This document shows positions 6,346 through 26,584 of a DNA stretch of 64,000 nt, one piece after another. Below the pieces are notes generated by a model that ran no database searches, was not told the origin of the DNA, and saw only the letters and a list, made by a program, of their open reading frames with translations. The translations under genes and the position numbers were made by a program. The number at the start of each line of letters is the position of its first letter. The first letter of the stretch is position 1. Source of the stretch: Tubulanus polymorphus (lineage: Eukaryota > Animalia > Nemertea); contig NC_134025.1 in the NCBI RefSeq assembly GCF_964204645.1, positions 24,222,299 to 24,286,298 of the forward strand, read 5' to 3'.

Positions 6346-6560
6346 CTTTGGTCGAACGGAGACCGCGACATCATTCGGATGACTTCGACATGGAGCGCGT
6401 CGCTCCTCTACCAGATCTCATACAGTTCCGTAGGGACCGATCCCGCTCGGAGCCTTCTGTCACGCCGATATTTTCGCCCGAAGAAGCCGGCGAATGGGGC
6501 CGACAGCTACGACGAATCAGCGACGAATTTCATTTTTCATACTCTTTCGAAGGGAGATTG
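6346..6560 (+). CDS. BAD: Internal exon of BAD-like BH3-only protein (phosphosites and BH3 domain)
   Basis: Acceptor ttttctttttgtctcttatag| and donor |gtaagt. Encodes (A)LVERRPRHHSDDFDMERVAPLPDLIQFRRDRSRSEPSVTPIFSPEEAGEWGRQLRRISDEFHFSYSFEGRL, which aligns to human BAD VEIRSRHSS...FRGRSRSAP...YGRELRRMSDEFVDSF. Confidence 0.88.
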
Positions 6561-6699
6561 GTAAGTAAAGCGTTTTGTAGATTTTTTTGTCGATGCGAAT
6601 TAATGCTTTATGAAAATTAACTCCAAATCAATCTATAAGCTGAATTGATGAAGAAATTTAATTGATTAAAACGGGTTGATTTTTGTGACACTTAAAACT

Positions 6700-6823
6700 G
6701 GGCCCAGTTGCACAGTCGTGCAAAGTCCAAAAATGGTATTGAATTGAGGCTAGTCCTAAGTTTTTAGACTGAAATTAGAACTAATTTGGTCTTAAAATAT
6801 GAGCATGACCATGCAACTGACCC
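6700..6823 (+). mobile_element. Degenerate copy of family A MITE
   Basis: gggcccagttgcacagtcgtg ... catgaccatgcaactgaccc; colinear with 19885-20022. Confidence 0.75.
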
Positions 6824-8585
6824 GAGGAGCTGAGTGTATGTAGATCATGATTCAAGCTATTTTGAAATTAAGGCTTGGGCCTCATGTTCAATAGATGTTT
6901 TGATTTGCTCTGTCAAATATGAATGTTCGTTAATTATTATTTGGTGTATTGTGTTTTGTAACACTCTCTAAATGTATTCATCAGCTAAATTGCCAATAGT
7001 TTCCTAGCGGGCTCATTTATCAGGGGCTTGGAAAGTGCGAATTTGATTATTCAAACAATTCCTGACGTATATTTATCAATACGAGAATCTGGTTGTAGTA
7101 ATTCGGTTTCGGCCATTAGGCGTCGTTTTGCAAATCTGATTTACGCCGTAACGAGATCACTATTGCAGTATTCCTCACTTCCCCCAGCTCCCGTTTTCAT
7201 TATTGCCTGTTGACCCCGTGAACAGTCACTGATTGAGTGGCCACTTCTTTCGCGAAAGACCTTTAGGAGAAACTGAAAATTTTCCTGAGTACTTTTTGTA
7301 AATTACGACTGTTTAATGGTCCTATCGGGACCATGCCTTTTTCAGCAATTACGACTGAAGTACTTGCAATTATCTTGGGGAGCATTTGTCCGACGTTACG
7401 AAAGCACCATTTACGATTATTTCATCTTGATTGTTGACTCGGCATGTTTTTCTTCCAAGATGCAATTGGCATTTTTCGTCGCGTTGGACTGTTGCTCCGC
7501 GCTGTAAAACTCTTTCTATCTTCATATCATATCGGCAATAAGTAAGCAAATTGTTGCTTGGTAATTTCTGATGGATATCGCTGATACATATAATCCTAGG
7601 TCCCTACCGTCGTAAACTGTGACCTGTTGCTTGTTAGATCGAGTCTCGTGGGAGGTATTAAATGCACGATCGACAATCCGGGAGGGCAGTTTTGTAGTCG
7701 ACCGGTGAAAGCATCTTCACAAATTGTCAATTCGGTAATAAATGATAATTAAGAGTAGTGGAATCATTGGGGGTGAATATTAAACATCTGTTATAAAGTT
7801 ATATGAATATTAGATTTTATAGCTGATAGCCGGATTCCGTGTTAACCAGGTATAACACCCCTGAAATTTAGCATTCATGTAGACTTATAACTTTTTGCCA
7901 GAACTTGTATCATCTTTATCGTGAATGTTGGTACGAATTTTATGTATTAAACGGGTTCAAAAGGTTGTGTAAAGGTTTCGCCGGCGATTGTTTCAGTGTG
8001 GTTTTATTTCCACGGTTTTATTATTAGATCAGATAAATGCAGCAACAGGTTGTAAAGTCACTCGTCATGACACCCGTGTCACCGCGAGGCAGAGACAAGT
8101 AGTTTAGGTCACGTATGGGTCATTTTATGTGCGGAGTTGATCGCCGAACAATGATATCACCGCTAAAACATTACGCGCAGTCATATAAACGAAGAATAAA
8201 GTTTATCGAAAGTTTATAGAGTTTAAAACTGTTTTTGAAAATTGACCGATCGTGTACATTTCGATCAGCGATGACCAATAGGTCATCCGATAGGTCATTT
8301 GGTCGTTTGATAGGTCGTCTTTATGTGAATCGTGGCAGGTCGCGGTCGCAGTTATTCAATCAGGGGCCGTCTGTAAGGTGAAACGCTGGTCAATCGTATA
8401 TGTCAATCGGAATCCACTTTCGTCGGTCTTTTGTGTTCACCTGTGAATATGACAGGTGCCTGAGAATAAAAACATTGATGGCAGCGGCCACACAACAAAA
8501 TGTCAGAACAGTGTCACAAGAGAAATAAATGCTCATTCGTGATGGAAAAATCATCATCATTTCTAACCTTCAGTAATCCTAACTT

Positions 8586-8625
8586 AGGCCACGGATCAGG
8601 CCTGAGCCAAATTTGGCCCAAAATT
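8586..8625 (+). repeat. Short fragment of family B element
   Basis: cacggatcaggcctgagccaaatttggccc resembles about 4953-4982. Confidence 0.6.
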
Positions 8626-23800: not shown

Positions 23801-23966
23801 AACCACAATCGCGTGGAGATTATTTGGCCCAGATCAAATTGGCCCAGATCAGGACCTGGTCCAACATTTTTGGGCCAAAGAGGCACGGACCAAACAGGCA
23901 TTAGCCCATTTGGCACCAGTATGAACAACTTTGGTCCGGGCCAAAATTACTCAAGTGATTGTGGCT
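23801..23966 (+). mobile_element. Family B copy 3 (internally deleted)
   Basis: aaccacaatcgcg ... gtgattgtggct ends. Shares caaattggc..gatcagg and acattttt(g)gcca blocks with copy 1. Confidence 0.7.
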
Positions 23967-24890
23967 GACATCAAAATCTATTTCATTTACCATGTATTTA
24001 CTGGCCGATAAAGGTTGGCGCCTTCAGTTCTTTTTTTATATTAAAAAATTCACCTGAAACCAGTCATTTCTTGAGCTATGTGAATCAAAGTTAAATACAG
24101 ACCAGCTCATTTGGGATAACGTATTGATATATACCGATATAATTTACCATCAATGCCAAGTTCTTGAATAGGTGCCATTTCGACCATGCTTTCTGCATTG
24201 TTGCCTGGAAACAAAATTGCGTTCAAGGCATTTGCAGAAAAAAATCAATCTCGGCGACTGCTTAGCATTACAAGTGCGTTGTAGTGTAATGCAACCATCT
24301 GTGACTATGAATACGGTTGTGATGCGCACGTATGAAAATATAAACCACTTTTTATTATGCAAATCATAAGTTTGCTAAGATTCTAGTCTATGCTCTTATG
24401 ATGTTTGAATGGTTATTCCTGATAGCGCTGAAAAACTAGGTATAACTGGTTGTTTCTTTTGGAATAAGTTTTCATCAGAAGTAGATTTATCACGGAAATG
24501 AAATTTTAGATATATTTGGTTTCCATTTTTCCATTTATCTCAAATCACTAATAACCGCTAAATAAGGGTGCTTGTCTTGAAATAGAATGGAAAGGCCACC
24601 TGTCCTCTCTAAATGCATGGATTGCGTACGATAGTGTTTTCAGGTACCATTTGCCTAAGGTACCAGCGTTGTCATTTAACTAGATCAATACACTAATGTC
24701 TCATAGACCCTGGATAAAAATGTATATGAATTAAAAATAGATATCAAGGCTATTTGATCATAGGAAAATCAGTATTTGGTGGTGACTGAAAATTAGAACA
24801 GCTAGAGGTTCGTGCATTGATTCATATAATAGTAGTGTGCAAGTAGTGTATTCTTAAAAAATGATATTTCTATCAACATTTTAGCTGACA

Positions 24891-24940
24891 ATATATATAT
24901 ATATATATATATATATATATATATATATATATATATATAT
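24891..24940. repeat. (AT)n microsatellite
   Basis: Perfect AT run. Confidence 0.98.
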
Positions 24941-26404
24941 GAACAAGAAAACTAAATTAATCTAAAACTAACTAGTTTATCGACGCTTTGAATAATAATG
25001 CCCATATTGGTTGAAATGAATAATGTGTATAGATTATATAGTATGAAGGATCAGGAAACTTATTTTGAATGTGAATATATATCGATAATTGAATTGAATT
25101 GACCGGCAACCAGTCTAGCCCCCAATATATTGACGTAGTGCACATCCTCTCAAAAATAATTATTAGAATTTATCTAAAAAAATAAAATAAAAGTTATGAA
25201 ATATATCTAATTACAAAACGCCAAAATTCAAAATTGTAATTGTTATTTTGAATTGCCAATTTTGATGATGTAGCTATCAATATATATAAGCATTATTGTT
25301 TATATAAATCATTTTTTATTCAAAAATTGCTTATGTCGCTCAATCATAAACCTTTATGGCGAACTTGCCTAATTACCCGAGCAAGTGGGTCTGAACTAAT
25401 GACATCGTTTCTTTCAAACGTCCTTGATCGGCGCCGATTAGATTAATGAAACTTGATGAACATTCGGCCAGACGCGAAACGAGGCTTCGGAGAAATCAAA
25501 TAAATTGAATATTTGATCGGGTGAAATAACGATGCATGAATCTGACTCATAAAACAATCGCGACGTTCCGATATTCTCGTCGGACACATGGCGTATGAAA
25601 TTTGTTTTTCACGTCGGAGCGTTTGTTTTACTTTGCATCATTAAACTCGTTATCTGTAGTTAGGAGGTAGAATCCACGCGATTGATGCGTAATTAATGAG
25701 CGATGAATAATGAATTTTTTTTTAAATCTTAGAACACGGGTTGACCCCGTTGTTTATTTCATTGGTAGTTTTCGTTTGATTTGTTTTGGTGTCCCTCTCC
25801 ACCGTGAGCGAAACAGGGTTTGAATTGGAAATTGGAAATCGAAATACATATATCGTTGTGTGATCGGCGGTCGCAGATTTACTTCTTTTTTTTTATCGAA
25901 GTACATAATTGGAAATTTCGGTTCTGGTTCATTCAAACAATCTTCCAACCAGCCTGAACCGGCAAGTGACTGGTTAGGGTCAGTAAATTCATTTTAGAAA
26001 AGTACACGGATGATATTAATTGACGTAAAATTCCAATTTTAGGTGCTTAACCTTTCGGATTGATGGGTTTCTGTGACGATTTATATCTTGGATCTTTCCG
26101 CACTTTTTCAGGAAAGTTTTTTCGAGTTTCGCTGACAGGGTTTGTTGACAATCGTGGAAATCTCTGCAAATACTTTGGCTTATTCTGGCACTGGTAATAA
26201 TGTTAGTATCTAACGAGTTGAGTTGGTTTAAGGGTAGTTAAGTAAACTGGTTACATCCAATTTTGAATCTAGAAAATCTCGGTTGTTAAATTGATATTGT
26301 AGCTGATAGGTGCTTCTTGTTGACTGTTTTGTTGTTTTCAAATTGTTTGAAAATATTTGTGGAATTCTTAAATATATTCAAATTTCTGTCTTCATGTTTT
26401 TCAG

Positions 26405-26584
26405 GGAAGTATTGCGGAGAACACACCTCCAGATGACAATCAATCTTCGTCGTATCCGGGCGCTCGACGCAACTGGATTCAAACGCTTTACCAGCGCATC
26501 GTGCGACCGACTCGCCGGCACTCGCAGTCCGACCTCGAACCGGGGCCGGTCTTACGCAAAAATCATTTCTGGCGCGAACAATAA
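26405..26584 (+). CDS. BAD: Terminal coding exon of the BAD-like gene (GSIAENTPPDDNQSSSYPGARRNWIQTLYQRIVRPTRRHSQSDLEPGPVLRKNHFWREQ*)
   Basis: Strong acceptor tttctgtcttcatgtttttcag|, GC-rich island in AT-rich DNA, phase 0 matching the donor after 6560, TAA at 26582-26584. RRNWIQTLYQRI resembles the amphipathic BAD tail SSWTRVFQSWW. This frame is absent from the ORF track. Confidence 0.7.
   Translation, partial: GSIAENTPPDDNQSSSYPGARRNWIQTLYQRIVRPTRRHSQSDLEPGPVLRKNHFWREQ

Follow-up and report, generated by a model that had tools for sequence, protein, structure and literature searches.

The 64,000-nucleotide (nt) stretch of DNA analysed here (the window: positions 24,222,299 to 24,286,298 of the forward strand of contig NC_134025.1) contains two exons that encode a short protein with a Bcl-2 homology 3 (BH3) segment and several serines in kinase-consensus contexts. 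The question raised by this locus is whether the gene is an invertebrate BAD that carries the complete serine switch of the vertebrate protein, as a first-pass annotation of the sequence had proposed. We conclude that the encoded protein is very probably a BH3-only protein of the BAD/BIM kind. It belongs to a family of invertebrate proteins which, with a probability of about 0.6 on the sequence comparisons below, goes back to a single ancestral gene of which vertebrate BAD and BIM are co-orthologues, and is not a one-to-one orthologue of BAD. The three serines and the best database matches agree with the initial proposal, but the BIM/BMF motifs of the relatives and a Pfam score under the curated cut-off do not, and 'BAD orthologue' is too narrow a label for what is better described as a BAD/BIM-type ancestral family.

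The source is an invertebrate, the nemertean Tubulanus polymorphus, as had been predicted from the letters alone. Both window exons are 100% identical to the RefSeq protein XP_074662836.1 (LOC141915267, 148 amino acids (aa), P0004 in our set) of this species, which joins them in phase at the predicted 6560/26405 junction. The record is labelled 'uncharacterized protein LOC141915267', so that the gene indeed lacks a BAD annotation. The gene model comprises:

6346–6560, forward strand: BH3 exon, phase 1 in and phase 0 out, residues 18–89 of the Tubulanus record.
6561–26404, forward strand: intron of 19,844 nt, GT-AG, with the junction of the RefSeq model, collinear with the Lineus protein.
26405–26584, forward strand: last coding exon, residues 90–148 and stop, matched by the Lineus protein (tblastn E 0.004).
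2589–2685, forward strand: candidate first exon, 32 codons and 1 base, at most an alternative first exon.

The BH3 exon is a single open frame between its AG acceptor (TTATAG/CT at 6345/6346) and its GTAAGT donor (TTG/GTAAGT at 6560/6561); the last exon follows a pyrimidine-rich acceptor (TTTCAG/GG at 26404/26405) and ends with a TAA stop at 26582–26584. An AATAAA at 27056, about 470 nt past the stop codon, is a candidate polyadenylation signal. The RefSeq record supports the 6560/26405 junction, and so does the collinear Lineus protein (53/106 identities). In the contig layout at the BH3 exon, no contig end was found at 6560 or 26405 and no read was seen spanning the junction; the contigs of X1 and X3 continue across the exon borders as DNA. 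The 5' junction is covered by the X2 contig (159 nt, depth 7.3, library type unrecorded), which matches 6344–6380 and is preceded there by 122 loose letters. The 30 loose letters displayed, read by eye, encode residues 8–17 of the RefSeq protein, and therefore the junction into 6346 exists in spliced form; X2 is possibly among the data behind the RefSeq model and hence is not independent of it. Beyond the RefSeq start codon, the same contig continues upstream for about 70 letters.

The proposed three-exon model of about 163 aa is not supported, as the RefSeq protein has 148 aa and its first exon (17 codons and 1 base) lies outside the window and is joined to 6346 by the X2 contig. Exon 2589–2685, which as a first exon would yield exactly 163 aa, is absent from the RefSeq model and the spliced contig uses another exon. 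Four ATG-to-donor candidates upstream of 6346 were likewise rejected, since none fits the spliced X2 contig. The 148-aa record may itself be truncated at its N-terminus, because its WYIG faintly resembles the WQIG that directly follows TQT in Lineus. The Lineus N-terminus gave no tblastn match in the window.

The BH3 exon encodes RPRHHS, RDRSRSEP and WGRQLRRISDEF, and its three Ser codons at 6375, 6447 and 6519 are those reported by the first-pass annotation. Kinase and 14-3-3 motifs are named here by their usual consensus definitions. The motifs of the protein are:

6360–6377, forward strand: site 1, RPRHHS (S28), an RxRxxS basophilic-kinase consensus without a Pro at +2, counterpart of BAD S75.
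6405–6419, forward strand: PLPDL motif, a conserved element of the invertebrate family and of the lamprey protein, invariant in the family alignment.
6432–6455, forward strand: site 2, RDRSRSEP (S52), RxRxxS plus RSxSxP, predicted Akt site and mode-I 14-3-3 motif, counterpart of BAD S99.
6477–6545, forward strand: BH3 predicted helix, residues 62–84, core LRRISDEF, with which BAD peptides of the PDB align.
26450–26503, forward strand: SYPG motif and basic amphipathic helix (residues 109–122), predicted membrane-association element.
26513–26524, forward strand: RRHS (S129), a fourth basophilic-kinase consensus.

The third serine, S76 (codon 6519), sits in an RRxS PKA consensus within the BH3 and is the counterpart of BAD S118. 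As to chance, a single open frame of the window combines a BH3-like core with two RxRxxS, against 0/100 third-order Markov windows, the core alone occurring on average 0.05 times per such window. In a structure model the local confidence (predicted local distance difference test) reached 92–94 over residues 61–80 and the predicted template modelling score (pTM) was 0.31; only helices 62–84 and 109–122 were formed, the rest being disordered. The Atlas model of the protein had a pTM of 0.26, and all its Atlas structure matches had template modelling (TM) scores below 0.5. The core residues W68, L72, I75, S76, D77 and F79 show BH3-only spacing on helix 62–84. The Bcl-2 fold is absent (two isolated helices, no Bcl-2 Pfam match), as is any transmembrane segment (maximum 19-residue hydropathy –0.03). 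The BH3 lies on the second-to-last coding exon, as expected for BH3-only genes (PMC7022251; this and the other papers are cited for the passages concerned).

Among Pfam families, the exon matched Bcl-2_BAD best (E 1.4e-4), followed by Bclx_interact, the BIM BH3 model (E 0.027), both below cut-off. The Pfam comparison suggested at the outset thus gave BAD as the best family at a score under the curated cut-off: the Tubulanus protein scored 23.8 bits (E 6.6e-5) with PF10514, for which the gathering cut-off is 28.2, and 15.2 bits with Bclx_interact, for which it is 25. Relatives of the protein exceed these values, Acanthaster (29.2 bits), Ptychodera (29.7) and Antedon (29.8) for PF10514, and Glandiceps (46.7), Acanthaster (32.4), Lingula (26.0) and amphioxus (27.4) for Bclx_interact. 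The three best PDB matches of the exon were BAD peptides (E 0.19–1.1).

The Lineus relative (423 aa) led to proteins of Mytilus, Glandiceps, Lingula and Acanthaster. A profile built from seven invertebrate-type proteins was searched against 1.84 billion proteins (E up to 0.001), and recovered 122 of them, including 14 BAD-like and 8 BIM-like vertebrate-type rows, classed as such by Pfam score. The 20 matches that were looked up by name confirm two of the BADs and one BIM. Named members come from 24 invertebrate species in eight groups: 2 nemerteans, 12 molluscs, 2 annelids, 1 brachiopod, 1 bryozoan, 3 echinoderms, 2 hemichordates and amphioxus (LOC118417579). One lamprey protein was also named. 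All named members but that of Octopus are annotated as uncharacterized, hypothetical or unnamed, and none as BAD or BIM; several invertebrate members already carry a precomputed Pfam tag, PF10514 or PF08945. The Octopus bimaculoides member (P0153) bears the name 'transcription factor mef2A-like', which is probably a misannotation due to low complexity. Among the named matches, most rows being unnamed, no cnidarian, arthropod, nematode or flatworm was found, and the seven-sequence profile search did not recover BMF or PUMA.

Leaving aside BAD, BIM and lamprey, 111 rows remained; a BH3 match was present in 101, and the other 10 were dropped. Of the 101, 48 have at least 200 residues before the BH3 and are called long. 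They were compared with 13 BAD rows (one fragment of the 14 being dropped) and 8 BIM rows. In the long rows, whose motif counts are biased upward as set out below, site 1 is present as strict RxRxxS in 36/48 and as relaxed RxxS/T in 45/48; site 2 is present in 47/48, 45 of them with Pro at +2, and its R, R and S are invariant in 32/32 aligned invertebrate-type proteins. The BH3 serine was found in 45/48 long rows, all three BAD-type serines in 33/48, and the three serines plus TQT in 30/48. TQT as such is present in 43/48, Lineus being among the carriers, and a degron-like [DS]SG[YFC] motif in 41/48, both with 0/13 in BADs; PLPDL occurs in 46/48 and in no BAD (0/13) or BIM (0/8). The degron-like motif is SSGY shortly before STQTP in echinoderm members, as in fish BIM-like rows, and RDSGY nearer the N-terminus in spiralian members. 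Of the C-terminal motifs, S[FY]P occurs in 28/101 relatives and a site like RRHS in 18/101.

The three-serine motifs are conserved from protostomes to amphioxus, in agreement with the first-pass annotation. Its argument from spacing fared less well: the first two serines are 24 residues apart as in human BAD, but this distance ranges from 16 to 40 over 65 members, and from site 2 to the BH3 serine it is 24 in Tubulanus against 19 in 13/13 vertebrate BADs. One member, P0079 (720 aa), has an N-terminal death effector domain (PF01335, E 1.2e-7) fused to the TQT/RxRxxT/BH3 part, and is either a gene-model merge or a connection of the extrinsic with the intrinsic pathway.

The family shares features with both vertebrate proteins. 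The 19-residue spacing between site 2 and the BH3 position is found in 13/13 BADs, in amphioxus and in Glandiceps, and 7/8 BIM rows keep RxRxx[ST] 19 residues before their BH3 Gly/Ala. In the non-mammalian BIM-like rows P0109, P0119, P0126 and P0115, this RxRxx[ST] lies at the position of BAD S99 and is, from its sequence, a possible overlooked 14-3-3 site. The BIM rows also have TQT (5/8, the other three starting 65 residues or less from the BH3), and have neither the BH3 serine (0/8) nor site 1 (0/8). A hidden Markov model (HMM) of the family's N-terminal part matched 5/8 BIM rows (E 1e-5 to 9e-4, search of 23 sequences) and 0/14 BADs; an HMM of the BH3 exon scored BADs at 36–48 bits and BIMs at 29–37 bits; a C-terminal HMM did not discriminate between the two (best E 0.057). 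Within the BH3, position h1 is V/I in 81/101 family rows and 8/8 BIMs and Y in 14/14 BADs, and h3 is I in 90/101 family rows and 8/8 BIMs and M in 14/14 BADs; Trp at h1 is unique to the Tubulanus row. A PE[IMV] motif occurs in 11/101 family rows, 7/8 BIMs and 0/14 BADs. Compared with BAD, Tubulanus thus has a spacing of 24 not 19, Trp not Tyr at h1 and Ile not Met at h3. The lamprey protein is intermediate, with TQT, a PD motif, site 2 and Gly in the BH3. This candidate is P0100, LOC144933487 of Lampetra fluviatilis, with its site 2 of the form RxRxxS; BH3-only proteins have been described as apparently absent from lamprey and hagfish (PMC8998228).

A tree of 32 selected core segments (80 columns) recovered BAD (100/95) and BIM (98/90) and little else, 15/29 inner branches being left open, and a grouping of the family with BAD that leaves out BIM cannot be established from it. 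We prefer co-orthology to BAD and BIM because of the parsimony of the motif distribution and because the profile matches showed no BIM-like invertebrate group of its own, and not because of the tree.

Several observations weigh against co-orthology. A grouping of BAD, BIM and lamprey was not recovered, its log-likelihood (lnL) being 8.7 lower, although it was not rejected (p-AU, the approximately unbiased test, 0.22). A grouping of BAD with amphioxus and ambulacraria exceeded the free tree by 0.42 in lnL (p-AU 0.525). In the tree Tubulanus adjoins BAD, at a support of 30/0. The Tubulanus protein matches a BAD row at E 3e-6 and a fish BIM-like row at E 0.006, and is thus closer to BAD; its 148-aa record has no TQT or degron motif, its upstream exons lying outside the window. 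The motif counts are biased upward: the profile contained the motifs counted, most rows are unnamed and some are redundant. The BH3 residue is Gly, not Ser, in 7/101 rows, so the serine is not fixed; these rows (P0013, P0014, P0028, P0072, P0099, P0103 and P0118) include the Mizuhopecten scallop and show the same change as BIM. Short linear motifs can also converge (PMC10107002). Finally, exon extent suggests a likeness to BAD, since the Tubulanus exon spans site 1 to the BH3 as in BAD and the BIM exon starts directly ahead of site 2. In Mytilus-type and BAD rows, with extents estimated from gene predictions that read into introns and not from genomic alignment, the exon opens a few residues before site 1 and closes 5–10 residues past the BH3 Phe, as in Tubulanus.

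Part of this evidence favours the strongest alternative, a one-to-one BAD orthologue, which supposes that BIM split off before the bilaterians, that invertebrates kept the BAD copy and that vertebrate BAD lost the N-terminal motifs. The exon extent and the unrejected BAD, amphioxus and ambulacraria split agree with it, as do the exon's best Pfam and PDB matches, which are BAD, and the BH3-exon HMM, which scores most BADs above BIMs. A pre-bilaterian split would, however, need repeated losses to explain the lack of an invertebrate BIM group, with BIM lost independently in spiralians, ambulacrarians and amphioxus. The BIM-type h1, h3, PEI, TQT and degron motifs of the family and the sub-threshold Pfam BAD score also speak against it, and we consider this alternative unlikely, at well under half the weight given to co-orthology. 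Still less probable is that the family is the invertebrate BIM, with BAD as a vertebrate offshoot or an older paralogue. The Glandiceps protein does score higher with the BIM BH3 model (46.7 bits) than with BAD (21), amphioxus groups with BIM in the tree (90/84, unstarred), the N-terminal HMM matches BIM only, and the Atlas feature neighbours, all below 0.9 and taken as leads only, are BMF, BIK and BIM clusters. Site 1 and the BH3 serine are nevertheless common to the family and BAD and absent from 8/8 BIM rows, and should BAD be a vertebrate derivative of this gene, the BIM alternative merges with co-orthology. The least probable explanation, that an unrelated disordered phosphoprotein gained BH3-like and RxRxxS motifs by convergence or that its BH3 is no longer apoptotic, accords with the argument that BH3 motifs arise easily by convergence (PMC10107002) and with the shortness of the similarity to vertebrate proteins (39 aligned columns), but as many as five motifs follow one and the same order, the 19-residue spacing is identical in deuterostome members, BAD and BIM, and vertebrate BAD and BIM were recovered at E <0.001 from the 1.84-billion library.

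A mechanism can be proposed, all steps of which are inferred from mammalian BAD and BIM. In those systems, BAD binds 14-3-3 when phosphorylated and then remains in the cytoplasm, whereas its dephosphorylated form binds Bcl-2/Bcl-xL and displaces Bax (PMC8503815). The unphosphorylated Tubulanus protein would be mostly disordered, and its BH3 helix would fold into the groove of pro-survival Bcl-2 proteins through W68, L72, I75, F79 and D77, an engagement that would free Bax/Bak. Akt/RSK-type kinases would phosphorylate S52, the presumed main Akt and 14-3-3 site (RSxSxP). S28 would be an auxiliary site, which is more likely because it has no Pro at +2, as in 47/48 long relatives. The phosphorylated protein would be sequestered by 14-3-3, a PKA-type phosphate on S76 within the BH3 would block groove binding, and the C-terminal amphipathic helix would associate with membranes. 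In the long family members, dynein-light-chain binding and beta-TrCP-type degradation would come in addition. Once the gene had duplicated in early vertebrates, BAD would have retained the serines but not the N-terminal motifs, and BIM would have kept the N-terminal motifs and changed the BH3 Ser to Gly.

From its motifs, a working phospho/14-3-3 switch in the Tubulanus protein is probable. As for the earlier suggestion that this switch is older than the vertebrates, the three-serine motif set does predate them at the sequence level, and the switch itself is read from the motifs. More tentatively, with slightly less than an even chance, the bilaterian ancestor had one 'proto-BIM/BAD' that responded to growth-factor signals by Akt/PKA-14-3-3 control, dynein-light-chain tethering and a beta-TrCP degron together, and which would survive unannotated in spiralians (molluscs, reported to lack BH3-only proteins, included), ambulacrarians and amphioxus, its controls having been shared out between BAD and BIM, and probably BMF and PUMA, by the vertebrate genome duplications. 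The human loci of BAD, BCL2L11, BMF and BBC3, at 11q13, 2q13, 15q15 and 19q13, may have paralogous neighbours in common. If this mosaic reading is true, two textbook mammalian control schemes, the phospho/14-3-3 switch of BAD and the tethering and degradation of BIM, stem from one older protein, and the link from kinases to cell death dates to the bilaterian ancestor.

The work of Aouacheria and colleagues on BH3 evolution, in 2005 and 2015, may already contain part of the present interpretation. In the literature searched, in which few subscription journals were covered, we found no description of spiralian BAD/BIM-type genes, of their phospho-sites or of a joint origin of BAD and BIM. Papers of 2013–2022 state, in the passages cited, that no BH3-only protein is known in bivalves or molluscs (PMC3634015, PMC5550854, PMC8917759). 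No lophotrochozoan BH3-only gene is named in the two relevant places of PMC11463336, and bioRxiv 2021.12.21.473695 excluded BH3-only proteins. 'Bad' is listed among oyster transcripts, with no sequence analysis in the passages concerned (PMC9679248), and a Bad homologue has been reported in coelacanth (PMC8998228). BH3-only proteins are described as mostly unrelated to each other (PMC10107002). A named candidate gene is now available in 12 molluscs (including LOC111129941 of Crassostrea virginica), in nemerteans and annelids, and in a brachiopod and a bryozoan; therefore, the upstream control of mitochondrial apoptosis in spiralians becomes directly testable.

The rest of the window was scanned with Pfam for 52 of its 323 open frames of at least 55 aa. 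Among these 52, no Pfam-supported neighbouring gene was found, the large intron included, and no Pfam-supported coding exon was found at 27600–64000. A Zn_ribbon_20 match at 23355–23609 was sub-threshold and is probably due to chance. Two high-copy dispersed repeat families, of very high contig depth, lie at 4927–5160 and 1090–1330, further copies being present near 8600, 16570–16660 and 17400, and long AT microsatellites occupy 37046–37280 and 18213–18316.

Three known systems can be compared with the Tubulanus gene and its family. The first is the set of echinoderm BH3-only candidates, which were obtained with human Bim, Bad and Bmf as seeds, and which at 350–373 aa, disordered and with the BH3 on one exon resemble the present proteins (PMC8998228). 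The echinoderm members were thus already flagged in 2022, and the Acanthaster match (isoform X2, 345 aa) is probably the same gene as the candidate of that study, judging from species and length. The section concerned differs in that BH3-only genes are only 'potentially present in Lophotrochozoa', and it gives no spiralian sequence, phospho-site or BAD/BIM mosaic (PMC8998228).

The second comparison is with BIM/BCL2L11 (PF08945) and BMF. The TQT of the family is the core of the dynein-light-chain motif in Bim and Bmf (PMC3078936), and its SG-aromatic motif resembles the beta-TrCP phosphodegron of BimEL at S93/94/98 (PMC4695108). Ambulacrarian members share the PEI motif with BIM, the family has V/I at h1 and I at h3 as BIM does, and non-mammalian BIM rows retain a residual site 2. 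In contrast, BIM has Gly/Ala in its BH3 and no site 1, and Tubulanus has Ser76 and a record without N-terminal motifs.

The third is vertebrate BAD (PF10514). The Tubulanus protein differs from it in a score below the Pfam cut-off, a site 2 to BH3 spacing of 24 versus 19, Ile versus Met at h3 and the presence of PLPDL, and the long family members differ further in the TQT and degron-like motifs that 0/13 BADs carry. The order of site 1, site 2 (RSxSxP) and a BH3 with Ser in RRxS is nevertheless that of BAD, as are the aromatic h1 of Tubulanus, the lack of a transmembrane anchor, the similar length and the apparently equal exon extent. The 148-aa Tubulanus form has no N-terminal module and is therefore the most BAD-like.

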